From positions 1 through 36,827 of the forward strand of contig RQOI01000083.1 of the NCBI GenBank assembly GCA_003854995.1: a stretch of DNA of 36,827 bases. The letters are read 5' to 3'. The notes below the pieces were generated by a model. It saw only the letters and a program-made list of their open reading frames with translations, made no database searches and was not told the origin of the DNA. The DNA comes from Candidatus Zhuqueibacterota bacterium (GTDB taxonomy: Bacteria > Zhuqueibacterota > Zhuqueibacteria > Residuimicrobiales > Krinioviventaceae). Positions 1,378-28,242 of the stretch are shown piece by piece. Within the stretch, counting starts at the first letter, position 1. Each line of letters opens with the position of its first letter. The translations under genes were made by a program, and so were the position numbers.

Positions 1378-1389
1378 AGAGGGAAGATT

Positions 1390-2493: not shown

Positions 2494-2606
2494 GGGAATA
2501 TGCGACATAATCGGACTGTTAACAAAAGCATCAAGTTTAAATGGTAGGGGGCGAACAGCAGATCCGCCAGTCATGGGGAATGCATAAAATGGGAGGATGA
2601 AGCACC

Positions 2607-4151: not shown

Positions 4152-4158
4152 AAAGATT

Positions 4159-5671: not shown

Positions 5672-7444
5672 TCATGCCGCTTCATCATCGAGGTTCAAGA
5701 ACTCTTTTCGCGATCCCTTCACTTTGGCCGGCACACCCATGGCCACTGAATAGGGAGGGATATCTCGCGTCACCACAGAGCCGGCGCCAATGACGCTGCC
5801 GTTGCCGATGGTGATGCCATCGAGAACCTTGACATCCGTGCCCAGCCAGACATCATCCCCTATCAAAACGCCGCCGCGATTGGCATAGCCCTGGCGCATG
5901 ATCGGCACATCGGTTCGATGGTAGTTATGTTGCGCCCCGCCAATGTAACAGTTCGCCGCCAGCAAGACGTGCTTGCCGAGCTTGATTTCAGACGTCGTGC
6001 CCAGGCGGCAATTGCCGCCGATGTTGGAGAAATCGCCGATCTCGATTCGACCGTCGCGCGTCCCCAGCACTGTGCCGCGTCCGAGCAGCACTTCATTGCC
6101 CAGAACAATCTCGGACTCGCCATTGCCTTGCGCACTCAGCTTGCAATACTCATCAATGACGCATTTTCGGCCAATGGTGATCTTTTTGCCATGCTGGATG
6201 GTCATGCTGCGGCCAAAAAGCGTACCTGGGCCCACTTTTTTGAACAGCGACGGGAAGAGCAGCTTTCTGAGAAAATAGCCGAGAATGCCCGGCAGGTAGC
6301 CGCAAAAGAAGGTGACCAGTTCGAACGTGCACAGGGTGAAAAGGTTATACGAGCCAATTTGAATGTCCTGATATTTTTTCAAGGCGGACTTGCGCTGTCG
6401 CATGATATCCTCAAAGCTACTAAAATATTTGACATCTCCCTTGACATCGCCGGCATCGATGTGATAGGTTATCTTATCGCCAATGATAACACTCTTGACG
6501 TGAATGCCCAGAGTCGCATAGTACAGTCCGCCGACAATGCCGGCGACAAGTGCTTTGGCGCGCAAAAGCAGAGCGACGGACAATCCCACGGCGCCCGCCA
6601 CGCCCATTCGCGAAAAGACAATAAAGTAGGCGCTTTCCGCCAATCCAATGCCACCGATCGAAATGGGTATCATGGTGATGGTCATGACGATGGGCGTTAT
6701 GATCAGAGCATCCATAAAAGTGATGGAGGCGCGGAAGGCCAGGGCGCTCACATAGACGTTGAAAGAAGCCAATAAATAGAAAAGGACAGAGTTGATCATG
6801 GCGAACAGAAAGGCACTCCGGTTATTCTTCAGCGACAGGGTGGCTTTTTGAAATTTGAGCAATTTGCAGAAAATCCTTTGTGCCGCGGTCCATTTGATCT
6901 GTTGTGAAAAGCGATGCAATATCTTTGGATTGAGAATGATGATGAGAATTGAGGCATAGCCGAAGAGGCAGATCGCCAAGCCGACCATCAGCCAGAGGCT
7001 GTTCAATTGATGCAAAGCGATGCCAAAAGCGATGATAGCCATGAGCAACAGTACGGACAGTCCGGTGAAGCGCTCGACAAAGACCGACGAAAATGTTTCA
7101 GCAGGCTTTTGGGTGGATTTTCCCAAGGCATAGGCGCGCACGACATCCCCTCCCACATTCGTCGGCAATATCGTATTAAAAAAATAGCCGACGATATAGA
7201 GCCAAAAGCATCGCCACAGCGTCACATTGATGTTGAACGCCTTGAGGATCACCTGCCATTTCCAGGCGCTGCAAAAAACAAGCATTGGCGTGATGGCGAT
7301 CGACAGCAACAAATAGTTCACGTCCGTTTGTTTTATGGTTTGCCAGATCTGCGCAAAGCCTGCCTTATAAAACACATAGGCGATGAGAGCCAGGCTCACG
7401 CCGATGCGCAGGAAAAATTCGAGGCTGTTCGCTTTTTTGCCCAT
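5672..7444 (-). CDS. Fusion of a lysylphosphatidylglycerol-synthase TM (UPF0104, flippase-like) domain and a hexapeptide-repeat (LbH) O-acyltransferase
   Basis: 'GYFFNTILPTNVGGDVVRAY', 'SVFVERFTG' and 'IPISIGGIGLAE' mark the TM family. 'IGDDVWLG...IGNGSVIGAGSVVTRDIPPYSVAMGVPAK' marks the LbH acyltransferase. Start moved to ATG 7444 to avoid overlap with the upstream gene. Confidence 0.85.
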   Translation of the reverse strand: MGKKANSLEFFLRIGVSLALIAYVFYKAGFAQIWQTIKQTDVNYLLLSIAITPMLVFCSAWKWQVILKAFNINVTLWRCFWLYIVGYFFNTILPTNVGGDVVRAYALGKSTQKPAETFSSVFVERFTGLSVLLLMAIIAFGIALHQLNSLWLMVGLAICLFGYASILIIILNPKILHRFSQQIKWTAAQRIFCKLLKFQKATLSLKNNRSAFLFAMINSVLFYLLASFNVYVSALAFRASITFMDALIITPIVMTITMIPISIGGIGLAESAYFIVFSRMGVAGAVGLSVALLLRAKALVAGIVGGLYYATLGIHVKSVIIGDKITYHIDAGDVKGDVKYFSSFEDIMRQRKSALKKYQDIQIGSYNLFTLCTFELVTFFCGYLPGILGYFLRKLLFPSLFKKVGPGTLFGRSMTIQHGKKITIGRKCVIDEYCKLSAQGNGESEIVLGNEVLLGRGTVLGTRDGRIEIGDFSNIGGNCRLGTTSEIKLGKHVLLAANCYIGGAQHNYHRTDVPIMRQGYANRGGVLIGDDVWLGTDVKVLDGITIGNGSVIGAGSVVTRDIPPYSVAMGVPAKVKGSRKEFLNLDDEAA

Positions 7445-7457
7445 CGCTGACCTGTTT

Positions 7458-8645
7458 TTAATTCGTATATCCGCGCAATAAAGACCGCAGATGATGTGCT
7501 GCCGCACGAGCTTTGGCTTTTTCTTTGACGAGCAACGGCACCATTTTATTCTTCAGGGCGTCGCGGTTCTCGTATGAGCGCACGATTAGCTCGAGATATT
7601 TTTCCAACGAGAGATCGCTGAAATCAATGAGGTTGTCTTGCATACCGATTGTGCGCATAAAACCGCGATTTTTCGGATAGGTGTTGATGCCGACCGGCAC
7701 GACGCCCATCGCTGACGAGAGAATCAGCGAATGCGTTCGCATGCCGACAAAAAGCTCCATTCGTTTGAGAATCGCGCAGATATCCTGGTAACTGTACTTT
7801 TTGTTTGTCACCAGTCGGATTCGTTCCTTTGTCTTGACTCTCTGCAAAACCTGGCTTGCGATACCCATGTCCATATGTTGAGTCTCAACAAAAATGACAT
7901 CGACATCCAGGGCGGCGATGACCCTGTCTACGGTTTCAGCATACAATTCGACAAGGTTGTCGCGGCCAAAAGCAGATCCGTCACCTTTCACAAATGCATC
8001 CACATAACTGTTCACATTAAATCCGATCACGGATTTGCCGGTCTCGAACAGGCGTTCCGAACGCTTCACTTCTTCAAAGCGCTTCTCCCCTGACGCTTCA
8101 GCGTTGAGGGCGCAATCCGCCCCTTCGATGATATTGGGATGCGTCAGGTTGAGCTTTTCGAGCAGTTCGACGGAAGCCTGGTCGCGCAGGATCAGAGCAT
8201 CCGCACAATCGACGATCCATTGCAGCGCCTTTTTGCCTGCGTCGGTGCGGACTGGCCCGAGGCTGCTGTTGTAGAGGACGATCGGGATTCGTCGTTTCTT
8301 CGCCATTGGCAGGATTTTTGAGAGCGTCCAAAGGTAATTGTAAAGCGGGTTATAGAGTTTGCGATCAAACAAGATCGCATCGGTCACGAGTACAAGATTC
8401 GAACGCAAGACCGTTCTCAGCGTGGGAATGCCAAATATTTTCACGCTGCCATTCCAGGGCAGCAAACTGACCGGCTTGACGCCGAACTTTTCAAACGAAT
8501 GCCGCACAAATGCCGGATTGATGGTGGGAACGAGGAATTCCACACGTTTGTAACGAGCAGCAATGTCCGTCAGCAGACACCCGAGAATGGCCGCATCGCC
8601 CGCGTTACGACCGGAATTATTGCCAATGACAGCGATCTTTTTCAT
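7458..8645 (-). CDS. Polysaccharide pyruvyl transferase family protein (WcaK/CsaB-like)
   Basis: 'GNNSGRNAGDAAIL', 'SSLGP', 'LILRDQAS', 'FVGMRTHSLILS' and 'YPKNRGFM' motifs. Confidence 0.85.
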   Translation of the reverse strand: MKKIAVIGNNSGRNAGDAAILGCLLTDIAARYKRVEFLVPTINPAFVRHSFEKFGVKPVSLLPWNGSVKIFGIPTLRTVLRSNLVLVTDAILFDRKLYNPLYNYLWTLSKILPMAKKRRIPIVLYNSSLGPVRTDAGKKALQWIVDCADALILRDQASVELLEKLNLTHPNIIEGADCALNAEASGEKRFEEVKRSERLFETGKSVIGFNVNSYVDAFVKGDGSAFGRDNLVELYAETVDRVIAALDVDVIFVETQHMDMGIASQVLQRVKTKERIRLVTNKKYSYQDICAILKRMELFVGMRTHSLILSSAMGVVPVGINTYPKNRGFMRTIGMQDNLIDFSDLSLEKYLELIVRSYENRDALKNKMVPLLVKEKAKARAAAHHLRSLLRGYTN

Positions 8646-9640
8646 GCCTTTTTTCTCATGTTTAGATGACCTTTTTCAATGTACCAGTTCGCCGTCCGGT
8701 GAACGCCCTCTTTCATGCCAACGTGCGGCGCATAGCCCAATTCGCGCTTTGCTTTCGAGATATCAAACGCACGGTCATGCGTAAAAATGTGAACCCGGCG
8801 CGGGTAGATGGGCGGTTGCAGTCGAAGAGGCACGCAGATTTTTTCGCACACCTGCGCGGCAATTTCCAACGGCCACACCGGTGGTTTCCACTGCGGCGGA
8901 CGTACGCCTAGCTCTTCGGCGACCATGTTGGCAAAAGCCTTCAGCGTGGTGTGGGATTCGCCGGCGATGATGTAGGTTTGTCCGACAGCCTTTTCGTTTT
9001 CTGCGGCAAGTCGGAAACCCTCGACCGTATCGGTGACATAAGTGAGGTGATAGAGGACCTGTCCGCCGCCAAACATCATGAATCGCTGCTTCTGAATCGA
9101 CCGATATAACTTGAGCATGCGGGTATCGCCAGGACCATAAATACCAACCGGGCGGACAACGGTCACGGGCAATCCAAAGTTCGCATGATAGTGGTGCGCG
9201 AGCTTTTCACCTTCATATTTTGTCGTCTGATAAATATCCTCCGGCTCTATGGGTGCATTTTCATCTGCCGGCGGATTTTTGATATCGCCATGTACGCCAC
9301 ATGTGCTGCAATGGAGAAAGCGATGCACGCCGACCGCGTGCGCCGCTTTCAGCAGATTGGCCGTGCCTGTCACGTTGACAGCCCAGTAAGCGCTATCGGG
9401 CACATTGGCAGCCCGATAGAGCGCCGCAATATGAAAGACAGCGTCGACGCCATCGACCGCATCCAGAACCTGCCTTTCATTCTGCAGATCGCCATAGGCA
9501 AATTCGATCGGCAAATGCTGTAATGCGGAGAGAACGCTCTGCGGACGCACGAAAGCTCGAACAGCATAACCGTGCTCGAGAAGGTTCCGAACCATATAGC
9601 CGCCGGTAAACCCGGAGGCGCCTGTGACCAGTGCTTTCAT
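8642..9640 (-). CDS. NAD-dependent epimerase/dehydratase (extended SDR)
   Basis: 'LVTGASGFTGG' Rossmann motif, catalytic 'YQTTK' (YxxxK) and 'RPVGIYGPGD'. 4-bp ATGA overlap with the downstream gene. Confidence 0.9.
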   Translation of the reverse strand: MKALVTGASGFTGGYMVRNLLEHGYAVRAFVRPQSVLSALQHLPIEFAYGDLQNERQVLDAVDGVDAVFHIAALYRAANVPDSAYWAVNVTGTANLLKAAHAVGVHRFLHCSTCGVHGDIKNPPADENAPIEPEDIYQTTKYEGEKLAHHYHANFGLPVTVVRPVGIYGPGDTRMLKLYRSIQKQRFMMFGGGQVLYHLTYVTDTVEGFRLAAENEKAVGQTYIIAGESHTTLKAFANMVAEELGVRPPQWKPPVWPLEIAAQVCEKICVPLRLQPPIYPRRVHIFTHDRAFDISKAKRELGYAPHVGMKEGVHRTANWYIEKGHLNMRKKA

Positions 9641-9661
9641 CTCGTAGCGACTCCGTTCTCG

Positions 9662-10483
9662 TCACTTTTTCGCCACGACACAAATGGCATGACCGAATTT
9701 TTTCCGAATCCCAGTTGGCAGCAGGTTATAGATCGGTACAAAAATGTGATTGAACAAGCCGGCGAGGAATCCTTTTCGGGGGGACGTTGTCGCGCGGATA
9801 TAATCCAAAAAGACCTCAACCTGTCGAAAATCCGAAAACAGCTCGCGAATATTTTTTTTATCGTACAGGCGCGTGATCGGGGCGTCCTCATGCGCGAACT
9901 CAAAGTTCACTTTGCCAAGCTTGGTGAGAAGAATTTTCCAGGAATACTTGTAATAGAGCGTGATCAACGCCTCACCGCCGGGCTTTAAAACTCGCAAGAC
10001 CTCTGCCACTGCATTCTCAGTGCTCTCTGTCTGATGCAGCACGCCGAGTGAAGCGACGATATCGAATGTATTGTCGGCAAAAGGCAACTTTTCCGCACTG
10101 CCGTGTTCAAATTTGGCTTGCAGGCGGTTATGCTGAAAATTCTTTTTCGCCAGCTCTAAAGCGGCCGCAGATAAATCCAGTCCTGTCGCACGCATACCAC
10201 AGCGAGCCCAGTGCAGCAATTCCCAGCCCGCACCACAGCCAATTTCCAAAATTGATCCGCCGGGGAATTTTGCCGCTTGCTTTTCAATCAGACGATACCG
10301 ATGCTCATAATTTTTCCTGATGAACGAAGCCACGGTATCAAAGAACTCGCCGGAGCCAATCTGCCGTGGATCTCCCTGCCAGAATTGAGTTGTATTGACA
10401 TTATCGGTCCAATATCGTTGCACCTCATCGATCGTCTTTACGTCACTCCCCTTCCACAAATAGGTACCTATAGAATCGGTCAT
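9662..10483 (-). CDS. Class I SAM-dependent methyltransferase
   Basis: 'ILEIGCGAG', 'GLDLS', 'LPFADNTFDIV' and 'RVLKPGG' motifs. Confidence 0.9.
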   Translation of the reverse strand: MTDSIGTYLWKGSDVKTIDEVQRYWTDNVNTTQFWQGDPRQIGSGEFFDTVASFIRKNYEHRYRLIEKQAAKFPGGSILEIGCGAGWELLHWARCGMRATGLDLSAAALELAKKNFQHNRLQAKFEHGSAEKLPFADNTFDIVASLGVLHQTESTENAVAEVLRVLKPGGEALITLYYKYSWKILLTKLGKVNFEFAHEDAPITRLYDKKNIRELFSDFRQVEVFLDYIRATTSPRKGFLAGLFNHIFVPIYNLLPTGIRKKFGHAICVVAKK

Positions 10484-10505
10484 TTCATCATCCGTTTTTC
10501 AATTT

Positions 10506-12164
10506 TCATGATTTATAAATTTTCTTGTAATCATCTATCTCGTCGTTCCGCCGCTCCGGCGTCCACTGCAGCTCCTGCGTCATCAGGTCAGCAACAGCAG
10601 AAATCTGCGTCTCTGTTGCCAGGCCTGCAGTGCCAAGCTCTGTTCTCCGCATCAGCATATCGGACAGTGTGTACGCCATTTCGTGCCGAATAGCAAAAAT
10701 GATTTCAGCCTTGAGGATGTGCGAGTCGCTGCTCACTGGTTCGGCCATTCGGGGATTGCCATTCGCACAAGCGAGGACATCGCGATAGCGAGAGCCATAG
10801 GTATGGAGCAGATGCTCTTTGCTGTCATCTGGCAGGGCGTGCAGATTTGTCATGCCATCGCCGACAAATTGATCCGTAGAGTTGATATCGCCACCCCATA
10901 CTGGGGTGGAGCGACTCGCGCGGCTTTTATCGCCATAGCCGAGTTTCTCGACAATCCGATCGACGGCCGCCTCAGAGACGCCGCGAGCTGTCGTATATTT
11001 GACGGTCAGCAGAGAGAGCAGGCCATCGAGACCGTCTTTTTGCTTGTGGTCAATGATGTCAAAGTGTTTTGTGAGGGTCACGTCGCCTGATTCTTTGTTG
11101 ACACCGGACATCGGCAGCAGACCAGCGTGAACGTGATCGATTTCATCGCGCCTGATTTTTTCATCTGGCAGGGAGCTTTTGACTTGGTCCAGAAACTCGC
11201 CAATATCCGCCTCGGTGACTGAATAATCCTCGGCAGCTCCATAATAGGGCTTGTGCGCCGTGCCGGCCAACGTCTTGCCGCGCCACGGCACAAAGAACAA
11301 CATTCTCGATCCCTTGTTGATGAGGGCATCGCTATCCCTGAAAGCTGCCCTGGTGGGAGCGGCAAAGGCCATTTTCGCCAATGGTCGATTGATGATGAGG
11401 TTCATGGCTGTCGAGAATTGAATTTTTTCTCTTTCAGGCCGATGATCGGCAATAAGATCATTGATCCACGGGCCGAGGGTGGTGATGGTCATCTTTGCCC
11501 TGACATCAAAAGAATCACCGCTCAACAGATCGCGCGCCTGTACGCCGTACACGCGGCCGTTCTTGCTGAGCACCTTTTCGGCTTTGACATAATTTGCCGC
11601 GACAGCCCCCTTTTCAACGGCTGCGTGCAAAAAAGAAAAAAGCAGCCGTTCCGAATTGATCATGTGACCGTCGTACCACATTGCGCCGCCATTGACATCC
11701 TTTCGATTCACTGCCGGAATTGACTGCAGCACCTGCTTTTTCGTCAATATCTTGCCACGCGGCAGCTGATGAGCTGCATCCAGTCCCCTATTCCGATCCG
11801 CGCTGAAAAGGTCGTTCATCAACAGGCCGAGTCGCATCACTTCCGGACCCTTCATCGCATGTCCGAACGTCGGCATGACACACCGCATTGGGAAGACGAG
11901 ATGCGGTGCGATCCTGAGCAAGATGCGTCGTTCGGTGATGGATTCGCGCATACGGATGAAATCCGCGTGCTGCAAATAGCGTAATCCGCCGTGGATGATT
12001 TTCAGGCTGTTGGAAGATGTTCCCGAGGCAAAATCTTTTTTTTCAATGAGCGCCACGCGTAATCCGCGCAGCACAGCATCCCAGGTCAACGTCGCGCCAT
12101 AGATGCCGCCACCGATGACGAGCAGGTCAAACTCTTCCTCCAGGCTGTGCAGATCTCGAATCAT
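10506..12164 (-). CDS. GlpD/GlpA-like FAD-dependent oxidoreductase (divergent glycerol-3-phosphate dehydrogenase family)
   Basis: 'DLLVIGGGIYGA', 'DFASGTSSNSLKIIHGGLRYL' and C-terminal 'AIRHEMAYTLSDMLMRRT'. ATG 12164 has GAGGA upstream. Confidence 0.85.
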   Translation of the reverse strand: MIRDLHSLEEEFDLLVIGGGIYGATLTWDAVLRGLRVALIEKKDFASGTSSNSLKIIHGGLRYLQHADFIRMRESITERRILLRIAPHLVFPMRCVMPTFGHAMKGPEVMRLGLLMNDLFSADRNRGLDAAHQLPRGKILTKKQVLQSIPAVNRKDVNGGAMWYDGHMINSERLLFSFLHAAVEKGAVAANYVKAEKVLSKNGRVYGVQARDLLSGDSFDVRAKMTITTLGPWINDLIADHRPEREKIQFSTAMNLIINRPLAKMAFAAPTRAAFRDSDALINKGSRMLFFVPWRGKTLAGTAHKPYYGAAEDYSVTEADIGEFLDQVKSSLPDEKIRRDEIDHVHAGLLPMSGVNKESGDVTLTKHFDIIDHKQKDGLDGLLSLLTVKYTTARGVSEAAVDRIVEKLGYGDKSRASRSTPVWGGDINSTDQFVGDGMTNLHALPDDSKEHLLHTYGSRYRDVLACANGNPRMAEPVSSDSHILKAEIIFAIRHEMAYTLSDMLMRRTELGTAGLATETQISAVADLMTQELQWTPERRNDEIDDYKKIYKS

Positions 12165-12177
12165 ATGAATAGCATCC

Positions 12178-14073
12178 TCAAGTTTTCGTGCCATGTTTCA
12201 TATACAAGTCATACCACAGGTGAAACACCATCAATGCCCATAATCTGTGACTATGATTCTCTCTGCTCTTCAGGTGTTCACTGACAAGTCGCTTGACAAA
12301 CTGCGGATCAAAATAGCCCTTTTCCTTCACATTCTTTTCCGATAACGACTCGAGCATCATCGGCTTGAGCTCATTTTTGATCCAGTTTTTGATCGGAATA
12401 CTGAAACCTTCTTTACCGCGCTCAATGATAGAGAGCGGCAGCTCATTCTGCATGCAGGTCTTGAGAATATGTTTTGTCCGTTTGCCTTTCAAGCGCAAAT
12501 GGCTTGGTATCGTCGCGGCAAACTCGACAAACCGAAAATCGAGAAAAGGTACGCGCGCTTCCAGCGAATTGGCCATGCTCATGCGATCAACCTTGACAAG
12601 GATATCATCAACCAGATAGCTTTTGATGTCCACATATTCCTGTTGGTCGAGAGGTTCGCGTGAGGTCACGCGCGCGAAATACTCTTCGATGAAACCAAAA
12701 GAATTGTAGCCGTGCAAAGACCGGGAGAACTCGGGCGAGTACAAAAGATCTTTTTCAGCCTTTTGCATAAATATCATCCAGCGGACATGTTGCAGATTGC
12801 CGGGTAATCTCGCACCTTCAATGAAGCGTTTGGCTCTGTTGATCAGTCCTTTCTTCTTTTCCGTTGGCGGCAGGGCGTCTATTATAGGATCAATTGATAA
12901 TTTTCGCAGAAATCCAGGCAATCTTGCATATTTTTTCGCCAGTCTCTGCGCGATGTAGGTGTCATAGCCGGCGAGCAGTTCATCACCGCCATCGCCCGAG
13001 AGCACGACCGTCACATTCTTGCGCGCCATTTGCGAGACGAGGTATGTCGGGAATACGGAAAAATCTCCAAAGGGTTCGTCGAGCATCCACACTATTTTTT
13101 CCGTCAGGTCGGCTGCGTCGGGCTTTATAATTTCTTCAAAATGCTCTGTCCGGAATCTCTCGGCAACGGCGCGCGCGTAGGGGAGCTCGTTATAGGTCGT
13201 TTCGTCAAAACCGATGGAAAAGCTTTTGACCGGACCAGTGTTGTTGCGGCTCATCATCGCGACAATAGTGCTTGAATCAAGACCACCGCTCAGAAAAGCG
13301 CCGAGAGGTACGTCACTCATCAATCGAATTTTAACTGCGTCCGCAAGAAGCTCATCCAGACGTTCGTTCAGTGCTGCCTCACTGGCCGTGGAGCAGTTGT
13401 ACTGCACATCCCAGTATTGTCGCACCAAAAGTCGGCCATCGCGATAGGACAGCCAATGCCCTGGCGGCAATTTGTGGATGTTGGTGAAAATGGTGTATGG
13501 ACTGGGAATATACTCAAAAGTGAGGAAAGCATCCAGCGCTTTCGGCTCAATCTCTTTCGGAATGGAATCGAGTTGTACAATCGATTTGAGTTCCGACGCA
13601 AATACGAGTTGCTGTGCATCGCAGTAATAATAGAGCGGTTTGATGCCGATGCGATCTCGAGCGAGGAAAAGTCCCTTTCGCCGGCCATCCCAAATGGCAA
13701 AAGCAAACATGCCGTTCAATCTTTCGAGACAGTTTATCCCCCACTCTTCATACGCATGCAGAATCGCTTCGGTGTCTGTTTTCGTAACGAAGACATGGCC
13801 TTTTGCCGTCAGCTCTCTGCGGATGTCGACATGGTTGTAAATCTCGCCATTGAAGACGATGGCCATTGATCGGTCCTCATTGAAAATCGGCTGATGGCCG
13901 GTGGACAGATCGATGATGCTCAGTCGTCGCATTCCGATGCCCACATTGTCGCAGACGAATTGACCTTCGTCATCCGGGCCACGATGTTTGATGACATTGC
14001 ACATTTTTATCACATCAGCGCGCGCAACCGGATGCTCTTTTTCCCGATGGATGATGCCGCAGATGCCGCACAT
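12178..14073 (-). CDS. asnB: Asparagine synthase (glutamine-hydrolysing) family amidotransferase
   Basis: N-terminal 'MCGICG' Ntn nucleophile, 'HRGPDD', 'RRLSIIDL', 'FLSGGLDSS', 'LSGDGGDE' and 'SLEARVPFLD'. The start overlaps the upstream stop (TAATG). Confidence 0.93.
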   Translation of the reverse strand: MCGICGIIHREKEHPVARADVIKMCNVIKHRGPDDEGQFVCDNVGIGMRRLSIIDLSTGHQPIFNEDRSMAIVFNGEIYNHVDIRRELTAKGHVFVTKTDTEAILHAYEEWGINCLERLNGMFAFAIWDGRRKGLFLARDRIGIKPLYYYCDAQQLVFASELKSIVQLDSIPKEIEPKALDAFLTFEYIPSPYTIFTNIHKLPPGHWLSYRDGRLLVRQYWDVQYNCSTASEAALNERLDELLADAVKIRLMSDVPLGAFLSGGLDSSTIVAMMSRNNTGPVKSFSIGFDETTYNELPYARAVAERFRTEHFEEIIKPDAADLTEKIVWMLDEPFGDFSVFPTYLVSQMARKNVTVVLSGDGGDELLAGYDTYIAQRLAKKYARLPGFLRKLSIDPIIDALPPTEKKKGLINRAKRFIEGARLPGNLQHVRWMIFMQKAEKDLLYSPEFSRSLHGYNSFGFIEEYFARVTSREPLDQQEYVDIKSYLVDDILVKVDRMSMANSLEARVPFLDFRFVEFAATIPSHLRLKGKRTKHILKTCMQNELPLSIIERGKEGFSIPIKNWIKNELKPMMLESLSEKNVKEKGYFDPQFVKRLVSEHLKSRENHSHRLWALMVFHLWYDLYMKHGTKT

Positions 14074-15290
14074 TAGCCTGTCGTCCTCATCACTCGTTCC
14101 ACAATCCATTTTGTCTTTTGCAGATAATCATCATAGCTGTAATGCTGTTCAGCCAGATGCTGCGCTGCAGCGACAAGACGCCGTTGAGCATCTCTATCGT
14201 CCAGAATAGAGAGCAGGGCCTCCGCAAATGCTTCCGGATTCGGATCGGCTAAAACAGATGTGGAGTCACTGAGTATTTGTGTGTGTGTGATGTGACGCGT
14301 GGCCACAATGGGCTTGCCGCTCCTCAAATAGGAATAGATCTTGAGGGGGGAATTGCTCCCCTGCAATCGCGGCGAGACGAGCACATCGCTGAGTGAGACA
14401 AAACCGGGGATCATGTTGGGCGGCACAAAGCCGGTGAAGGTGAATTTAGATTCAACTCCGAGTTTTTGTGCTTGCGCCCGATACATCGACACCTGCTGTT
14501 CATTGCCGCCGACCATTAAAAATCGGACGTCTCCGCGGCGTTTTTCCACCCGAGCGGCGCTTTCGACGAGCATATCAATCCCCTGATACGCCTCAAACGT
14601 GCCATAGTAGAGCACTATCTTTGCGCCATTGATATTGTACTGCTTTTTCAAGCTTTCCTGCAGGGCAGCGGTCGCCGGGAAGACAATGCTGTTATCCGCG
14701 ACGTTTTCAATGAGCATACAGCGCTGATCGGGAAATTTTTTTTCGACATAGCTCTGCAACTCTGGGCAAATCGTTATCACGCCGGCAGATTTCCTGATCG
14801 TCTGTCGCTCCAGTGCTTCAAACAGCTCGAGCAGCAGCTTGGACGTGGAGAATTTGAAATTACCGAGCTGCTGCGGCAAACTGGAATGCATGTCATACAG
14901 ATGCGGCAGGCCGTATTTCGCGGCCAGAGAAACGCCAAAAAAACCGGCTTCTTCGTGAGTGTGCAGATAGTCATAGCGGAATTTCTTCAGCAATTCCACA
15001 GCTTTGAAATAGAGGGCGATATCCAGAAATATCTTGGGCAGCGATGGTCCGATCTTTACTTTTTTGATGAACGGCACCTTTGCCGCACGATGGATGGAGA
15101 GGTTATCGATCGACACATCTTCACCGACATGATAGGTGACCAAATCGACTTTGTGGCCAAGCAGCGACAATGCCTTGATGCGATGCAATACACTGAAAGG
15201 CGTACCACGAGGCTGGAACCACGGTTGGGGCGCGATCATGAGAATGCGCAGCTTTTCCACTTCATCGCCATCATGGATGTTAACATTCAT
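14073..15290 (-). CDS. Glycosyltransferase family 4 (GT-B)
   Basis: 'RILMIAPQPWFQPRGTP', 'YYGTFEAYQGID' and 'SPLKIYSYLRSGKPIVAT'. Start could alternatively be GTG 15260. Confidence 0.9.
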   Translation of the reverse strand: MNVNIHDGDEVEKLRILMIAPQPWFQPRGTPFSVLHRIKALSLLGHKVDLVTYHVGEDVSIDNLSIHRAAKVPFIKKVKIGPSLPKIFLDIALYFKAVELLKKFRYDYLHTHEEAGFFGVSLAAKYGLPHLYDMHSSLPQQLGNFKFSTSKLLLELFEALERQTIRKSAGVITICPELQSYVEKKFPDQRCMLIENVADNSIVFPATAALQESLKKQYNINGAKIVLYYGTFEAYQGIDMLVESAARVEKRRGDVRFLMVGGNEQQVSMYRAQAQKLGVESKFTFTGFVPPNMIPGFVSLSDVLVSPRLQGSNSPLKIYSYLRSGKPIVATRHITHTQILSDSTSVLADPNPEAFAEALLSILDDRDAQRRLVAAAQHLAEQHYSYDDYLQKTKWIVERVMRTTG

Positions 15291-15320
15291 CGAAAAACAC
15301 CTTTGATAAAATTTTGAGAC

Positions 15321-16778
15321 TTATTGAGCACCGTAGCCGGTGATGACAACCCAAAAGGTTCGAAACATCAGTTTGAGATCCAATACGAGAGACCAATGAT
15401 CGATGTATTCCAGATCCATCCTCATCCACTCTTCAAAACCGATTTTGTTCCGGCCGCTGACCTGCCAGATACAGGTAATTCCGGGCTTGAGAGAGAGCCT
15501 TCGGCGCTGCCAAATCTCATAGTGCTCGACTTCGCTTCGCAAGGGTGGCCGCGGGCCGACAATGCTCATATCACCTTTCAACACATTGAAGAATTGCGGA
15601 ATTTCATCGATGCTGGTTTTACGGATGAGATATCCGATGGGTGTGATACGCGGGTCATGCTTGATCTTGAACACCGGGCCATCCATCTCATTATGATGCG
15701 CAAGCGACTCTTTTAACGCTTCCGCATCTGAGACCATAGACCGGAATTTGTACAGCGAAAATTTACGTCCATTCAGCCCGATACGTTCTTGTCGGAAAAA
15801 GATGGGGCCCTTCGACGTGATGCGGATCAAGAGTGCGACAAGCATGATGAGTGGTGAGAAGAAGACGATGGCACAGGCTGAAATGCAAATGTCCAGCACT
15901 CTTTTGATAAAGAGCTGCCATTCCTTTGCGTAAAAGGTCTGGAATTCCAGCAGCGGAAAGCCGTTAAAATCGGTCTGCCTCGCTTTGGCAATGTGCAGAT
16001 TATAGAGGTCCAAAGAGATTGAGGTCGAGACGCCCACCTTTTCGCACTCCAGTATTGCACCTTCGATTCGATCCAACCAAATCCGCGGCACGACAAAAAT
16101 GACCCGGTCAATGACGAGTCGGTTCACAATGAAACCGATGTCCTGAATGCGACCGAGGACGCGATACCCTTCGATCTCTTTGCCAAAATAGCGCGGATCA
16201 TCATCAATCAAGCCGACGATGTGCAATCCCCAGTTCGAGTGACCCTTGACATTGCGAATGAATTCGCGGGCGCGATTGCCGGTTCCAACGATGAGTAAAT
16301 TTTCCTGGTTATAACCTTTGGCATGCATCCGTTCCAAAATGAACAGGAGCATGGCTTTTTCCAATATGATCAACGTGTAAGCTGTGCCAGAGTAAACGAG
16401 GAAGAATAACCGGCTGGCCATATCAAATTTGAGAAAGAAGACAAAACTGCCGCACACGAAACTGGCCCAAATGGAGGTGACAAAAAGAATCCACGCCAGA
16501 TTTTTAAAAGTGCGCGTCCTGTACTCCTGATAGATTTTATTCAGCTTATACAGCACCCACCAGATGAGCGGAAAACCAATGAACATGATCCAGTATTTTG
16601 AGGCAAAATACATTAGACCGGATACATCGACGCTGGTCGCATAGGCCTTCACATTCCAGAACGTAATGTAGCGAATGAATTCGTCGACATAGTACGCCAA
16701 TGGAAATGCGACATAAAGAATGAGCAGATCGATGAACTGCATCACATTCTGAATGAACTTTTCTTTATCGACCAACAT
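15321..16778 (-). CDS. Polyprenyl-phosphate glycosylphosphotransferase (WcaJ/WbaP-like priming sugar transferase)
   Basis: N-terminal TM helices, then 'IKRVLDI', 'YKFRSM', 'DPRITPIG', 'SIDEIPQFFNVLKGDMSIVGPRP', 'KPGITCIWQVSGRN' and 'DLEYI'. Confidence 0.93.
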   Translation of the reverse strand: MLVDKEKFIQNVMQFIDLLILYVAFPLAYYVDEFIRYITFWNVKAYATSVDVSGLMYFASKYWIMFIGFPLIWWVLYKLNKIYQEYRTRTFKNLAWILFVTSIWASFVCGSFVFFLKFDMASRLFFLVYSGTAYTLIILEKAMLLFILERMHAKGYNQENLLIVGTGNRAREFIRNVKGHSNWGLHIVGLIDDDPRYFGKEIEGYRVLGRIQDIGFIVNRLVIDRVIFVVPRIWLDRIEGAILECEKVGVSTSISLDLYNLHIAKARQTDFNGFPLLEFQTFYAKEWQLFIKRVLDICISACAIVFFSPLIMLVALLIRITSKGPIFFRQERIGLNGRKFSLYKFRSMVSDAEALKESLAHHNEMDGPVFKIKHDPRITPIGYLIRKTSIDEIPQFFNVLKGDMSIVGPRPPLRSEVEHYEIWQRRRLSLKPGITCIWQVSGRNKIGFEEWMRMDLEYIDHWSLVLDLKLMFRTFWVVITGYGAQ

Positions 16779-16785
16779 GTCTCAA

Positions 16786-17772
16786 TCACGTCCTCGAAAG
16801 GTCTTGTTCATGTCGTTGATTATTCTGCAGGAACCATTGCACAAAATACCTTATACCATCTTCGATCTGAATCTGCGGATCATATTCAAGCTCTCTCCTC
16901 GCCTTTTCGACATTCGAAAAGGTGACAGGCACATCACCCGGCTGATCCGGCCTGAATTCGAGGAGCGCTTCAATGCCGAGAGCGTCCTGTATCAGTCTGA
17001 TGAGCGCAATGAGTTCGATCGTCTTTGATTCGCCGAGATTATAAATATTATAGCCATCGCAATGGTGGATCGCTGCTGTGATGCCCTGAATGATGTCGGA
17101 AATATAGGTGTAATCGCGACGACTGGCGCCGGCGCCAAAGACTTGAATCGGTTTTTTGCTGTAGATGAGACGGGTAAATTTATGAATCGCCATGTCCGGG
17201 CGTTGCCGCGGACCGTATACGGTGAAAAAGCGCAGACAATTGACCGAAATATCGTAAAGGTGGTGATAGGTGTAGCAGATGAGCTCACCGGCCTTCTTTG
17301 TCGCGGCGTAGGGTGAAATCGGATGATCGACAAGATCTGTTTCTTCAAACGGCACTTTCTCATTGGCGCCATAGACAGACGAAGAAGAGGCAAAGACAAA
17401 TTTTTTTATGTTATGAATTCTGCACTGCTCGAGCACATTCATCGTGCCGCGCACGTTCACGCTCTCGTAGAGCAAAGGGTGCTCGATTGAGGGACGAACA
17501 CCGGCTCTCGCTGCGAGATGAACGACGAGATCAAAAGGATGCTGATGAAAAAGTTCCTGCAGGCCGGACTCATCCAGGATGTCCAATTCAGCGAGTCTAC
17601 AGTTTGCCGACCGCAACGCCGCACTGATATTTTGTCGTTTGATGGCTGGACTGTAATAATCATTGAAATTATCCAGACAAACGATATTATGCTTTTCTTC
17701 CACCAGCCTTTCGATCAAATGCGAACCGATAAAACCGGCGCCACCTGTGACGAGAATATTCAAAGCGCTCAT
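16786..17772 (-). CDS. UDP-glucuronate 4-epimerase-like SDR
   Basis: 'TGGAGFIGSH', 'DNFNDYY', 'HLAARAGVRPS', 'SPYAATKKAGE' and 'RFFTVYGPRQRPDMA' fit the GAE/CapI subfamily. Confidence 0.88.
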   Translation of the reverse strand: MSALNILVTGGAGFIGSHLIERLVEEKHNIVCLDNFNDYYSPAIKRQNISAALRSANCRLAELDILDESGLQELFHQHPFDLVVHLAARAGVRPSIEHPLLYESVNVRGTMNVLEQCRIHNIKKFVFASSSSVYGANEKVPFEETDLVDHPISPYAATKKAGELICYTYHHLYDISVNCLRFFTVYGPRQRPDMAIHKFTRLIYSKKPIQVFGAGASRRDYTYISDIIQGITAAIHHCDGYNIYNLGESKTIELIALIRLIQDALGIEALLEFRPDQPGDVPVTFSNVEKARRELEYDPQIQIEDGIRYFVQWFLQNNQRHEQDLSRT

Positions 17773-17779
17773 CTTCCTC

Positions 17780-20101: not shown

Positions 20102-20111
20102 AATTCAACCT

Positions 20112-20777
20112 TTAATTTTTATCACTGAATGCGTAGTATAAAAGCACGAGCGATGCGAAAAAGTTGACATATCTCGTAATCGCATCAAAACTGATTCTGC
20201 TAACTCGCGGAACGACGATCTCATCACCAGATACAAGTCTCAGCTCGCGAATGGATGTCCCTTCATACAAGGAATTCCAAAAATCTGCGTAAATGATTTC
20301 GCCATTTCGCACGACGTAAATATCTTCAGCTGCGAGGTTACTCGACAGTCCGCCCGCCTCGGCAACTACATCCCAAAAAGAGGTCGTCGGGCTAAAGCGG
20401 TACATTCCTGGTTTGCCGAACTCTCCCTTCAGGATCAGCCGAATGAGAGGATTGATCATGATGGTCAAATTTTTTCCGTACGTTTTAAACTTTTCTTCAA
20501 ACAGCTTTGTCACTTCCTCGAGCGACATGTCTGCCACATAGACTCGGCCAAATGATCCCAATTGTACATAACCTTCGCCATCAATCACAAATTCGACATC
20601 ATGAAAGTTTGACAGGATTCTATTGCGGTTAGGCTCCATTTCATTGTCGTAGATCAATATTTTCAAGCCATCGGCCTTTTTAAATCTGAAATCTTCTGTT
20701 GCATGCGCAGTAAGGTGCACGGCGAAAAATAATGCGATGATCAAACTCTTGCATAAAGTTTTCTGAACCACGTCCAA
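20112..20777 (-). CDS. Polysaccharide export protein (Wza-like; Poly_export + SLBB)
   Basis: TTG start with GAGGAG RBS. 'VIDGEGYVQLGSFGRVYVADMSLEE', 'GEFGKPGMY', 'VAEAGGL' and 'LVSGDEIVVP'; C-terminal hydrophobic helix; adjacent to wzc. Confidence 0.85.
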   Translation of the reverse strand: MDVVQKTLCKSLIIALFFAVHLTAHATEDFRFKKADGLKILIYDNEMEPNRNRILSNFHDVEFVIDGEGYVQLGSFGRVYVADMSLEEVTKLFEEKFKTYGKNLTIMINPLIRLILKGEFGKPGMYRFSPTTSFWDVVAEAGGLSSNLAAEDIYVVRNGEIIYADFWNSLYEGTSIRELRLVSGDEIVVPRVSRISFDAITRYVNFFASLVLLYYAFSDKN

Positions 20778-20789
20778 TCTCTCCTCAAT

Positions 20790-21530
20790 TTACCGTGAGC
20801 GGAAATAACGAAATCTCTTGGTCTTTGTATCCAGAGACAAGCTTTTCAATATGTTGTATAGTTTGAGCAAACCGACCCTGGTATAGCCAAAGCGTGGTGA
20901 AAAGAGCATCCTTTTCAATCCCCAGGCGCCAAGAATCGGATTCTCCAGAACGATCTTTTTTATTTTTTCATTGATCGGCAATAGAGTTTCATCGATTTCC
21001 CTGCTGTGGGATCGACTCGGCTTCGAATCAGAGGGCGTGATCGCAGCAGCGGGTGTCCGATGCTGTCGATCGATCTGATCGCTGACCAGCGCACTCTTTG
21101 TCGACGCATTGACGCTCATGCCGGCGACAGGGCGGATGTAGGAAGATGGAGCTGCCGCGCTGTTGAGTCCACGACAAAAATCAAAATCCTCAATAGCTTC
21201 CTCGATCGAGTCATAGCTGGAAAGGATGCGATGAAATTCGAGCATTTCGAATACTTCAAAAACCTCCGATGACATCTGCGTGATTTTCAAATCACCGCCT
21301 TTTTCCTGCAATCTGCGTATTTCGCCGACAAACACGCCCCATCCTGCGCTGCTGACATATTGAACCGCCGCCATATCGATGATAAATTGACAGATGCCCT
21401 GTTCAATCGTCTGCCCCAGCAACTTTTGCAGCTCAGACGATGTGTTCGTATCGACATAGCCATGCGTTTTAAGCAATGCGATATCCTTCAACGCTCCGAC
21501 CCGATACTCTTCAATTTGAATACCTTCCAT
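20790..21530 (-). CDS. STAS-domain anti-sigma-factor antagonist fused to a C-terminal HTH-like domain
   Basis: 'GYVDTNTS...IIDMAAVQYVSSAGWGVF...GGDLKI...VFEVFEMLEF' is a STAS domain with the conserved Ser. ATG 21530 has an AAGGAA RBS and lies downstream of the sigma-54 promoter. Confidence 0.88.
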   Translation of the reverse strand: MEGIQIEEYRVGALKDIALLKTHGYVDTNTSSELQKLLGQTIEQGICQFIIDMAAVQYVSSAGWGVFVGEIRRLQEKGGDLKITQMSSEVFEVFEMLEFHRILSSYDSIEEAIEDFDFCRGLNSAAAPSSYIRPVAGMSVNASTKSALVSDQIDRQHRTPAAAITPSDSKPSRSHSREIDETLLPINEKIKKIVLENPILGAWGLKRMLFSPRFGYTRVGLLKLYNILKSLSLDTKTKRFRYFRSR

Positions 21531-21619
21531 AATTTCCTTTTCACCTGTTCGTTCGCTTTTTTCCAGCGCGACCGCACCACACGCATTGAGGGTCACTGCC
21601 TGCAGAGAGCGGTTTATTG

Positions 21620-21636
21620 AGCAAAGTTGGTGCCAA
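21620..21636 (-). promoter_or_regulatory. Sigma-54 (-24/-12) promoter of the polysaccharide operon
   Basis: Minus strand reads TTGGCACCAACTTTGCT, matching TGGCAC-N5-TTGC(A/T) with exact GG-N10-GC spacing, 90 bp upstream of ATG 21530. Confidence 0.85.
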
Positions 21637-21792
21637 TGGAAGAGATCATGCGGCAAATGAAAGGGGGATGAAACGGCGCAGGTTTGTATGCCAGTAATTC
21701 TATATTTTTATTAGTCTAATAGCGGAAAGTTTTGCAAGAATATGCACGCCTTTGATTCCGATTCAAGCCGGCGGCATAAAATAAAACAGGTC

Positions 21793-21830
21793 TGTCAAGG
21801 CACGAGACAAAGATGTCCCACCCTAATACA
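21793..21830. promoter_or_regulatory. Tandem TGT-N11-ACA enhancer-like sites (putative UAS for a sigma-54 activator)
   Basis: TGTCAAGGCACGAGACA (21793-21809) and TGTCCCACCCTAATACA (21814-21830), centres 21 bp apart, about 190-215 bp upstream of the predicted start site. Confidence 0.6.
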
Positions 21831-21835
21831 TCAGT

Positions 21836-21862
21836 AAAAAAACCGCATCACTTGCGTTTTTT
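21836..21862 (-). terminator. Weak possible intrinsic terminator overlapping the glgA stop codon
   Basis: Minus strand AAAAAA-CGCA-AGTGA-TGCG-G-TTTTTTT; only a 4-bp core stem. Confidence 0.3.
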
Positions 21863-23465: not shown

Positions 23466-24230
23466 TCAAAGCTGACCGAGATGTGATTGTGCTCGGCCGG
23501 CATATTCACTGGTGGGATGTTCTTTGAGCAGTTTCTCAAACTCCCTTTTTGCCTGCGCTTTATCATTCAATTGAATATAGCATAATCCCAGCTTGAGCTG
23601 AGCGTCATCTAGTTTATTCGAATTTGGAAAGTTGAAAACCTTTTGGAACTCCATGATGGCTTGGTTATAGTTGCCCAATCCATAGTAGCATTCACCTTTC
23701 CAGTACTGGCAATTATCTGACAGAGAGTTGTTTTCGCCCGATGCCAACAACTGATCGAACGCGAAAATAGCGTCGTTGTATCGCCGGCTGTAATAAAGTC
23801 GCAGCGCGTCATCATATCGGCTCTTAAAGCTCGTCCCGGTCGGCACCGTTATTTGCGTGAGGGTTTGCGATTTGGCTTGAATTTGCGCATCCTTTTCCTC
23901 AAGTTGGTTCTTCAGCGACGCCAGTTGCCGATCTCTTTCAGTGACTTCGCTTTCCAGACGCCCAATTTCATCCTGCAATATCTGTTGTTCGTCCTTTGTC
24001 TCGGTCGTCGGCGGTTCAGTCTCCACTTGCTCATCTTTTATACCGAGCAGGCGCAGCACTTCATCTTCATCGGAAGAGGCGGCTTGATCATCGGTCATCG
24101 TCTCGCCGGGATACAACTCTTCCTCACCGTATGCACCTGCCTGATTACCCGCGCACGAAAAGATGAGAAAACCAGAAAGAATAAAAGTGAATAAAAGCGA
24201 ATAAATCCAAATCAGGCGTTTCATGTTCAT
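23466..24230 (-). CDS. CpoB/YbgF-like TPR lipoprotein
   Basis: Lipobox-like 'LIFSC', coiled coil, then TPRs 'LSDNCQYWKGECYY', 'SNKLDDAQLKLG' and 'LLKEHPTSEYA' typical of the YbgF C-terminus. Confidence 0.8.
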   Translation of the reverse strand: MNMKRLIWIYSLLFTFILSGFLIFSCAGNQAGAYGEEELYPGETMTDDQAASSDEDEVLRLLGIKDEQVETEPPTTETKDEQQILQDEIGRLESEVTERDRQLASLKNQLEEKDAQIQAKSQTLTQITVPTGTSFKSRYDDALRLYYSRRYNDAIFAFDQLLASGENNSLSDNCQYWKGECYYGLGNYNQAIMEFQKVFNFPNSNKLDDAQLKLGLCYIQLNDKAQAKREFEKLLKEHPTSEYAGRAQSHLGQL

Positions 24231-24234
24231 TCTC

Positions 24235-25407: not shown

Positions 25408-25452
25408 AGTGGCTTCCTTTCTACCAAACACCCTTTGTTCGTTTATGCTCTC

Positions 25453-28170: not shown

Positions 28171-28242
28171 TGGGGCGTCGGCAAGTGGCAAGCCACTGGG
28201 TTTTGGCTCCAGTATTCGGAGGTTCGAATCCTCCCGCCCCAG
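28171..28242 (+). tRNA. tRNA-Gln (UUG), CCA not encoded
   Basis: Acceptor stem TGGGGCG/CGCCCCA, D arm GGC...GCC, anticodon arm CTGGG-TTTTGGC-TCCAG, T arm GGAGG-TTCGAAT-CCTCC. Confidence 0.96.

Follow-up and report, generated by a model that had tools for sequence, protein, structure and literature searches.

How is a polysaccharide operon controlled when its first gene encodes a STAS-domain protein and a sigma-54 box lies in front of that gene? The question is raised by a 36,827-nucleotide stretch of DNA (the window), which is contig C516 of the metagenome-assembled genome (MAG) G000 (3.54 Mb in 661 contigs, 78% complete). The closest protein matches carry the names candidate division KSB1, Calditrichaeota/Calditrichota and Candidatus Oleimicrobiaceae, and the names of related contigs include Candidatus Zhuqueibacterota. 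An earlier reading of the letters without database searches (the sequence-only reading) had described 12 co-oriented genes separated by 30 nt or less, with the STAS gene followed by wza and wzc. This description holds, since Pfam families fit all 12 products and the largest gap is 30 nt.

The sequence-only reading had also proposed two layers of control, one by sigma-54 and an enhancer and the other by partner-switching phosphorylation of the STAS protein. The first layer has gained comparative evidence, while the second, with no kinase or phosphatase gene nearby, stays at the level of the plausible. As a whole, we think it probable that this is an inducible polysaccharide operon switched on by sigma-54 and an NtrC-type activator, in which the STAS protein with its additional C-terminal domain (STAS-CTD) serves as a second checkpoint. 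Judged by conservation among relatives, the predicted sigma-54 and paired-enhancer layer is strongly supported; the partner-switching layer, built on a STAS protein that could be switched by phosphorylation, is plausible but unproven.

The sigma-54 box and the putative paired enhancer

Taken by itself, the exact box upstream of the STAS gene (Table 1) is statistically unremarkable, because the 37-kb window holds 4 matches with at most one mismatch against 3.45 expected; its weight comes from its conservation in relatives, not from the single match. A second -24/-12-like match, within the methyltransferase gene (9994-10008, 1 mismatch), is at chance level, and so are the scans of the window for sigma-70 promoters (23 vs 18.2) and for terminators (15 vs 19.1). 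Two palindromes make up the putative enhancer. The distal one (TGTATTAGGGTGGGACA, 21830-21814) starts 195 nt upstream of the box start, within the usual range of activator sites (~80-200 nt), and the proximal one (TGTCTCGTGCCTTGACA, 21809-21793) follows it. Their 7-N3-7 geometry is that of NtrC-type sites.

The STAS protein most likely starts at the ATG at 21530, which has a GGTGA/AAGGA ribosome-binding site ahead of it and is the start common to the homologs. In this point the sequence-only reading, which had described another start codon, has to be corrected. The upstream TTG at 21656 is the less likely start.

For the comparison, 80 related loci were collected from species-representative genomes with a gene for a STAS-protein relative (39-68% identity), and the 77 loci with enough upstream sequence entered a census of promoter and enhancer elements. 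A paired site was counted with at most one mismatch in its 12 fixed bases and an offset of 18-22 nt, and a box as TGGYAY-N5-TTGY no more than 250 nt from the ATG; 2146 blocks taken from the same loci served as controls. When 11 divergent glgA-STAS spacers were aligned, the only invariant columns were those of the box and, ~150-190 nt further upstream, a TGT..ACA..TGT..ACA pattern. The paired site is found in 49 of the 77 related loci and in 6 of the 2146 control blocks, and the box in 46 of 77 and 2 of 2146, counts which are not to be taken as probabilities because kin are not independent. The consensus sigma-54 box and the paired enhancer-like sites claimed by the sequence-only reading are both borne out as conserved elements, and the end that it gave for the region, 21830, is where the distal site begins. 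In relatives, 96-228 nt (median 142) separate the start of the paired site from that of the box. Among the 30-31 genomes available from the window's own order, the exact pair is kept in 25 of 30; all 30 have one exact site or more, and 26 have the box.

The two elements are mostly kept or lost together: 43 loci have both and 25 neither, while 6 have just the paired site and 3 just the box. In loci with both elements and a placeable glgA (n=42) the glgA-STAS spacer measures 195-435 nt (median 316.5), and in loci with neither element 7-242 nt (median 52). The short spacers, seen in about a third of the lineages, suggest that STAS and glgA are probably co-transcribed there. For 17 of the 25 module-less loci, which lie among L112-L142 (e.g. 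L126:5990-6000 and L113:5946-6000), the glgA stop and the STAS start are 7-58 nt apart. The label of a candidate new system, given to the locus earlier, is too strong. Nor is sigma-54 control universal, since about a third of the related loci have STAS joined to glgA and no such control.

A quick maximum-likelihood tree of 78 STAS proteins and the paralog described below, midpoint-rooted on the paralog's long branch and hence provisional, places the sigma-54 architecture on both sides of its deepest split. The state with neither element needs 4 changes on this tree, of which well-supported branches force at least 3. Within the limits of such a tree, the pattern fits an old sigma-54 module that was lost a few times.

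Such losses raise the question whether box and palindromes do anything at all, or whether the operon is read through from glgA or driven by an unrecognised housekeeping promoter. The 25 module-less loci, 17 of them with STAS at most 58 nt after glgA, would agree with that, and the hairpin after glgA in the window is weak, being no better than shuffles (z -0.54) and not called by the terminator scan. We nevertheless hold it highly improbable that the elements are without function, because they are the sole conserved islands in a freely varying spacer, are hundreds of times commoner than in control DNA, and occur in STAS lineages on either side of the tree's deepest split.

A candidate activator on another contig

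The proteins that sigma-54 control calls for are encoded in the genome. It has rpoN (PF04552, 206.9 bits; contig C337, open frame of 486 aa) and 28 matches to Sigma54_activat (PF00158), 21 of which are strong (E 8e-42 or better). There are also 10 STAS matches, 13 SpoIIE matches and 5 HATPase_c_2 (RsbW-like) genes above the cut-off, two of which adjoin other STAS genes. The sequence-only reading had pointed to rpoN, activators and RsbW/SpoIIE genes as things to be found, and all are present.

When the whole genome was scanned for the paired site, in which each palindromic site scores on both strands, two distinct places were found: the STAS operon and C35:20896-20930. The second pair lies ~55 nt after the stop codon of a gene for an NtrC-type response regulator (Table 1), and ~85 nt before a TGGTAT-N5-TTGC box that precedes a 405-aa open reading frame (ORF) without family. 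In the regulator, the Walker A motif reads GESGTGK and the loop GSFTGA. Since the sole other paired site stands directly after this activator gene and in front of a sigma-54 box, the C35 regulator is likely to control the STAS operon, and from the placement of the sites we infer that it is the best candidate activator.

This candidate is well conserved. All but one of the 31 genomes of the order encode a single ortholog (78-97% identity), and no paralog exceeds 51%. Of the 30 ortholog loci, 19 have the exact pair downstream, and 26 have a TGGTAY-N5-TTGC box ~100 nt further on; in the four activator loci without pair and box, the neighbouring 405-aa gene is missing as well. The sites upstream of STAS (38 and 39 distinct) and those downstream of the activator (18 and 17) have position profiles that agree at positions which the search pattern had left free. 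The shared motif is TGTTTCA-N3-TG(A/G)nACA for the distal site and TGTTTC(G/A) for the proximal site. Enhancer and activator also tend to vary together. In 4 of 5 distant genomes with the STAS enhancer there is an activator ortholog (76-80% identity), followed by the pair (at most one mismatch) and the box, and in 0 of 5 enhancer-less genomes does a pair or box follow the best activator homolog (75, 64, 60, 49 and 45% identity).

The operon beside the C35 activator (locus L151, C35:14000-27938; ORFs 7048-8265, 8361-9026, 9115-10878 and 10875-12074) has the same paired enhancer and sigma-54 box. Its products are the 405-aa protein, a 221-aa protein that faintly resembles zf-HC2/anti-sigma (E 0.014 and 0.00087) and two REC-DUF4388 proteins, and lpxB, a DUF374 gene and lpxK lie upstream of it. 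Boxes with a single TGT-N11-ACA site upstream number 4 in the genome and 1 in shuffles, and two of the 4 are the paired ones. The TGGYAY-N5-TTGC boxes at C295:3571 (+) and C397:2695 (-) have one such site 151 and 227 nt upstream; these are possibly extra members of the regulon, or else chance matches.

By family models, the C35 activator stays below the cut-off of every named NCBIfam equivalog (AtoC 517/714, NtrC 472/559 and PrsR 444/503 bits). As it is the best PrsR match of the genome (443.6 bits, cut-off 502.6), we considered whether the locus is a PEP-CTERM/exosortase (XrtA) exopolysaccharide locus under the PrsK/PrsR sigma-54 two-component system. Products of the operon show a similar resemblance: the amidotransferase reaches 680 bits against the XrtA-system model TIGR03108, the tyrosine kinase 146 bits against TIGR03018, and a glycosyltransferase matches stp3. 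All these scores are nevertheless under the curated cut-offs (817 and 231 bits for the first two), and in the 78%-complete genome neither exosortase (PF09721) nor PEP-CTERM (PF07589) gave a match, the latter profile also matching in no genome used as a control. Within the limits of an incomplete genome, we hold an XrtA locus to be very improbable.

The STAS protein, its paralog and the C-terminal domain

The STAS protein has 847 homologs at E<=0.001, the best 120 of which are 231-282 aa long, with 119 covering the whole query. An alignment of 26 sequences shows conservation over the first 120 residues and over the final 68, but not in the linker between them. The protein is accordingly built of a STAS domain (1-120), a disordered linker (~127-177) and a basic four-helix C-terminal domain (CTD; 180-246). 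An AlphaFold2 model predicts both domains with confidence (predicted local distance difference test, pLDDT, about 90 for STAS and 94 for the CTD) and the linker as disordered.

The STAS domain matches SpoIIAA/RsbV, with a Foldseek E of 4e-8 and a best structural Z of 17.9 at a root-mean-square deviation (rmsd) of 1.9 over 116 residues (1tid_B). Ser60-Ser61 are invariant in the 26 sequences, and Ser61 aligns to the first Ser of the SpoIIAA motif D-S-S-G, which we take to be the phosphorylated serine. Among the 146 phylum genomes with a completeness of 80% or more, 142 encode STAS-CTD; for high-quality genomes the figure is 104 of 105, and for genera 88 of 88. This tally includes one unpublished genome, G152.

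Each genome also encodes a STAS-CTD paralog. In G000 it is a 217-aa protein (C375:2487-3140; locus L232, C375:1-5589) that is 37% identical and has the same three-part build, and its gene has a SpoIIE-TPR phosphatase gene directly upstream and obg and dprA downstream. All 12 loci collected from other genera and families show the order phosphatase-paralog-obg-dprA. As the paralog always stands beside a PP2C phosphatase gene, this gene order supports regulation of the STAS-CTD family by serine phosphorylation; it speaks for the family, and not for which enzymes would act on the operon's own copy.

The CTD is the unusual part of the protein. When folded alone, it is predicted as a compact four-helix domain (pLDDT 93.3; predicted template modelling score, pTM, 0.77), and it is basic, with an isoelectric point (pI) of 10.6 against 4.5 for the STAS domain. 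A CTD profile run against 1.84 billion representative proteins found 313 at E<=0.001, in which the domain almost always lies at the extreme C-terminus of proteins of 60-566 aa. Pfam was run on 48 of the 150 proteins listed from these 313, picked mainly for unusual length. A STAS domain stands just before the CTD in 39 of the 48, including four FHA-STAS-CTD proteins (P0199, P0205, P0247 and P0262), one named as coming from a Chitinivibrionales MAG. These fusions link the module to phospho-threonine signalling in another lineage of the Fibrobacteres-Chlorobi-Bacteroidetes (FCB) group. Three of the 48 consist of tandem transposase-type helix-turn-helix (HTH) repeats. Among the proteins matched by the profile are P0128 (487 aa), P0203 (661 aa) and P0259 (1937 aa); they include proteins of 5 and 11 tandem HTH-like repeats, by name from Chlamydiales and Clostridiales MAGs, while the 1937-aa protein has HTH_28 and GT2 domains.

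The sequence-only reading had credited the STAS protein with an extra HTH. An extra domain that is conserved and confidently folded is there; its HTH nature rests on weak matches. The CTD of 8 of 32 aligned relatives matches HTH_21 (best E 7e-6), that of the window's own protein not being among them, and the CTD of one relative reaches 29.7 bits against HTH_Tnp_Tc3_2 (cut-off 31.5). An hhalign comparison of the CTD with the Fis-type HTH_8 regions of 14 activators of the genome gave a probability of 1.7%. In structural comparison, where a Z of about 8 is the level that the tool calls meaningful, the best matches are the N-terminal domains of ArgR/AhrC (Z 5.9 and 5.8, rmsd 2.7 and 2.6, over 58 and 55 residues). 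The sigma-54 RpoN domain is also listed (Z 5.4, rmsd 2.0 over 53 residues), and nearly all top rows are HTH or winged-helix DNA-binding domains (also Fur, MarR, MecI and LexA). From these models, an HTH assignment of the CTD is reasonable but unproven.

If the CTD binds DNA, the paired sites might be operators of STAS-CTD itself, through which it regulates its own gene, the true enhancer-binding protein being another of the ~21 activators. The sites do lie in front of the gene for STAS-CTD, whose CTD is basic, confidently folded, most like HTH/winged-helix DNA-binding domains and, in a quarter of the aligned family members noted above (8 of 32), a weak match to HTH_21. Yet sites and box are kept or lost together (9 of the 77 loci are discordant) while all loci keep STAS-CTD; the sites stand at a distance from the box that is typical of activator sites; the sole other paired site has an activator gene, not a STAS gene, beside it; and the geometry is that of NtrC-type sites. 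We regard such autoregulation as unlikely, and the paired sites as probable binding sites of an NtrC-type activator.

The likeness of the nearest structural neighbours, among them the RpoN domain that reads the -24 element, also gives rise to a bolder idea, namely that STAS-CTD is a phospho-switchable DNA-binding "one-protein partner switch" acting at sigma-54 promoters, where it would help or compete with sigma-54. We put this forward as a speculation with little chance of being right. If true, it would couple serine phosphorylation to enhancer-dependent transcription of cell-surface genes across the phylum, and would suggest what kind of target SypA-type STAS proteins have.

The output of STAS-CTD could also lie outside transcription. 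SypA, the STAS protein of the Vibrio fischeri syp locus, is described in passages of PMC4517449 and PMC8256260 as inactivated by SypE through phosphorylation on Ser56 and, in the unphosphorylated form, as acting on an unknown target. In the same way STAS-CTD might act post-transcriptionally, with the CTD docking the unphosphorylated STAS domain on the export or priming machinery (Wzc kinase domain, priming transferase) and thereby licensing polymer synthesis. The order STAS-wza-wzc-epimerase-transferase in all long-enough loci would suit this, as would the near-universal presence of the protein, which fits a partner in the machinery, and the HTH likeness of the CTD, which is below decisive thresholds. 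However, the same module occurs in the paralog beside Obg and DprA, without polysaccharide genes, and in the FHA-STAS-CTD proteins of another phylum, so that the CTD is not specific to the Wza/Wzc machinery; moreover, its structural neighbours are almost all nucleic-acid-binding domains. We consider docking to be on the unlikely side with a real chance left to it, and keep STAS-CTD as a second checkpoint on a sigma-54-driven operon as the preferred reading.

The operon, the proposed mechanism and known systems

The 12 genes run on the minus strand from 21530 to 5672, and all have clear Pfam and NCBIfam assignments (Table 1). With longest-ORF starts, the intergenic distances in order are 12, 10, 7, 7, 30, -37, -17, 22, 21, -4 and -50 nt. 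Four overlaps are thereby found in place of the two reported earlier, a number that depends on the choice of start codons.

Table 1. Positions of the genes and regulatory elements in the window (contig C35 where stated)
Feature	Position	Strand	Basis or remark
STAS-CTD regulator, 246 aa	20790-21530	-	Pfam STAS 64 bits; TIGR00377 61 bits vs cut-off 53.45
Wza-like outer-membrane polysaccharide export protein, 221 aa	20112-20777	-	Poly_export and one SLBB; N-terminal signal-like segment
Wzc-like co-polymerase and bacterial tyrosine (BY) kinase, 773 aa	17780-20101	-	Wzz, GNVR; TIGR01007 177.6 bits, above cut-off
NAD-dependent sugar epimerase/dehydratase	16786-17772	-	Pfam, NCBIfam
Polyprenyl-phosphate glycosyl-1-phosphate transferase (priming)	15321-16778	-	Bac_transf and CoA_binding_3; TIGR03025 418.5 bits, above cut-off
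GT4 glycosyltransferase	14073-15290	-	Pfam
AsnB-like amidotransferase	12178-14109	-	Pfam
GlpD-like FAD oxidoreductase	10506-12194	-	Pfam
SAM methyltransferase	9662-10483	-	Pfam
SDR	8642-9640	-	Pfam
Pyruvyl transferase	7458-8645	-	Pfam
Flippase-like LPG_synthase_TM domain fused to hexapeptide acetyltransferase	5672-7507	-	Pfam
Predicted sigma-54 -24/-12 element, TGGCACCAACTTTGC	21621-21635	-	Exact TGGCAC-N5-TTGC, 90 nt upstream of ATG
Paired enhancer (predicted upstream activating sequence, UAS)	21793-21830	-	Two 17-bp TGT-N11-ACA palindromes, TCTT between, starts 21 nt apart
glgA (glycogen synthase), upstream neighbour	21848-23329	-	317-nt regulatory spacer to STAS
NtrC-type response regulator, REC-Sigma54_activat(AAA+)-HTH_8 (Fis-type)	C35:19457-20843		Pfam

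The linkage of STAS and wza claimed by the sequence-only reading is borne out in relatives: Wza follows STAS in 77 of 80 loci, and the other three end less than 300 nt from the STAS stop. The counts for Wzc, epimerase and priming transferase are 68, 64 and 63 of 80, and by length each miss is a locus that ends too early. Upstream, glgA precedes STAS in 75 of 80 loci, four being too short on that side and one (L111) being without glgA. Ten longer stretches were available from the order. Four of them (two from the same genus and one each from two other families) have all twelve genes in the same order; of the remaining ones, one contig ends after nine genes and five keep eight to eleven. This conservation indicates a conserved glycan pathway and not a hypervariable antigen locus.

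The Wzc-like protein has two transmembrane (TM) segments, a Walker A GKS and a C-terminal YSYYHY tyrosine cluster that is kept in 23 aligned relatives. No Wzx, Wzy or Wzb family was found by Pfam among the 12 operon products, to which this search was confined; the LPG_synthase_TM domain of the last gene is described in Pfam/NCBIfam as "flippase-like". The SDR reaches 181 bits against HpnA and the membrane domain of the last gene 65 bits against HpnL, both hopanoid-associated models and both scores below cut-off. The operon product may be a polysaccharide or a glycolipid.

Most relatives also keep a beta-barrel outer-membrane protein (398 aa) three genes upstream and a TPR lipoprotein-like gene two genes upstream (23466-25431, minus strand, in the window). 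Composite translocons of an outer-membrane polysaccharide export (OPX) protein and a beta-barrel exist, and this barrel may complete the export channel of the short Wza-like protein. On the other side, four co-oriented plus-strand ORFs (55-5652) converge on the end of the operon. One of them (1390-2493) encodes a GSU2086-family protein (320 bits), the other three (440, 514 and 497 aa) are without Pfam or NCBIfam family, and the last two of the four are kept at the same position in two genomes of the same genus. The sole Rfam match in the window is a tRNA gene (28171-28242, plus strand), so none falls in the 5' leader of the operon.

In the mechanism that we propose, sigma-54 RNA polymerase would bind the box at 21635-21621 and stay closed until an activator opens it. 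Dimers of an NtrC-family response regulator would bind the two palindromes (21830-21793) and reach the promoter by DNA looping, and if this regulator is that of C35, one phosphorylation signal would switch on both the STAS operon and the operon on C35. A serine kinase and a PP2C phosphatase encoded elsewhere would probably toggle the STAS domain at Ser61, and the basic, HTH-like CTD would deliver the output, to DNA or to a partner. The operon would then make, decorate and export a surface or extracellular polysaccharide by the Wza/Wzc/priming-transferase route. In this scheme the gene content, the box and enhancer sequences with their conservation, the domain folds and the genes for RpoN, activators, kinases and phosphatases come from the data; the identity of the activator at the sites, the phosphorylation of Ser61 and the contacts of the CTD are what we infer.

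Several results weigh against the mechanism. In the window, neither Pfam on all ORFs nor the Sigma54_activat, HATPase_c_2 and SpoIIE profiles found a gene for an activator, a kinase or a phosphatase. Across the genome, the strict box pattern shows no enrichment over shuffles (28 matches vs ~30), and the two paired sites of this 78%-complete genome have to be read against five shuffles that gave 0-4 hits, or ~1.2 distinct sites by chance. The sigma-54 module is wholly missing from 25 of 77 loci. The loop of the C35 activator, GSFTGA, departs from GAFTGA, the canonical consensus of activator loops. The co-variation test comprises 5 + 5 genomes and is confounded by relatedness; in addition, G013 has the STAS enhancer, yet no activator ortholog above 51% was found in it, and in G032, which has an activator homolog of 75%, the enhancer is missing from both places. 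The window's CTD matches no Pfam family at E up to 10, a Foldseek search with the CTD alone gave no hit at E<=0.001 (best E 1.5), and its best structural Z values, 5.0-5.9, are below the decisive level. Finally, three metatranscriptome runs of the same study yielded 3 short contigs, all from one run (6862-7020, 7631-7837 and 22275-22425), which show neither a start site nor a single 16-kb transcript.

Among known systems, the closest in logic is syp. According to passages of PMC4517449, sypA is the first gene of the locus in V. fischeri, and according to passages of PMC10162802, SypG activates the sigma-54-dependent syp promoters, including PsypA, of all four operons. The analogy drawn by the sequence-only reading is sound in both respects. 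The window system shares the leading STAS gene, the predicted sigma-54 promoter, the putative NtrC-type activator with an upstream enhancer and a STAS serine that could be phosphorylated. Unlike syp, it forms one operon and not four, and counterparts of the activator (SypG), the sensor kinase (SypF) and the kinase/phosphatase (SypE) are not inside the window locus. Its STAS protein has a linker and a conserved 68-aa CTD, whereas SypA is a single-domain protein, and its host belongs to the FCB group and not to the Gammaproteobacteria. By this comparison, the system seems to work like syp without being a member of it, as three features that define syp are not found here, and can be seen as a real, phylum-wide analogue of the Vibrio syp logic. 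The enhancer motif of the window system, a TGTTTCA-N3-TGAAACA-like pair, was derived from the present comparison.

Other systems share parts of the arrangement. With the anti-sigma-factor antagonists SpoIIAA/RsbV the STAS domain has in common the fold, the TIGR00377 score and the serine position, but here there is no adjacent RsbW-type kinase or sigma factor gene, and the extra CTD and the linked polysaccharide genes are added. NtrC-type enhancers are likewise two dyad 17-bp sites ~100-200 nt upstream of a GG-N10-GC element, served by an activator with REC, AAA+ and Fis-type HTH domains; the sequence of the sites differs here, the C35 activator is below the cut-offs of the named equivalogs, and the regulon seen consists of two operons. 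In Nostoc punctiforme, passages of PMC8256260 describe the hmp proteins HmpU/HmpV/HmpW as a STAS partner-switching module tied to polysaccharide secretion, a likeness by description and not by sequence; there kinase and phosphatase are encoded with the STAS gene, and those passages mention no sigma-54 link. The export genes resemble the Wza/Wzc of the group 1 capsule and colanic-acid type in having an OPX protein, a BY-kinase of the polysaccharide co-polymerase (PCP)-2a class with Walker A and a tyrosine cluster, and a priming phosphoglycosyl transferase. They differ from that type in that the Wza-like protein is short (221 aa, one SLBB) and the locus is conserved order-wide and not hypervariable.

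No description of this system came up in a literature search that combined STAS domains with Wza, Wzc and sigma-54. The main text of the Zhuqueibacterota paper (PMC11683472), whose supplementary tables might list the genes, mentions neither "sigma" nor "STAS", and the review of STAS-only proteins (PMC8256260) does not mention "helix-turn-helix", "DNA-binding" or "fused". A general association of sigma-54 with exopolysaccharide genes is established, according to the abstract of PMC3162934.

Precedents exist both for sigma-54 control of exopolysaccharide genes and for STAS gating of biofilm polysaccharide, most of them in Vibrio. In the present lineage the two-layer arrangement appears to belong to the core, being conserved order-wide in an uncultured phylum of the FCB group, for which an enhancer motif, a candidate activator and a previously undescribed module of STAS and C-terminal domain, present as two paralogs, are now defined. 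What is new is the STAS-CTD module together with its phylum-wide and evolutionarily dynamic wiring. As a natural fusion of STAS to an HTH-like output domain, the module leads to a nucleic-acid-binding hypothesis that bears on the target of SypA, and the loci with a sigma-54 spacer, set beside those with STAS directly joined to glgA, offer a natural experiment in promoter rewiring.

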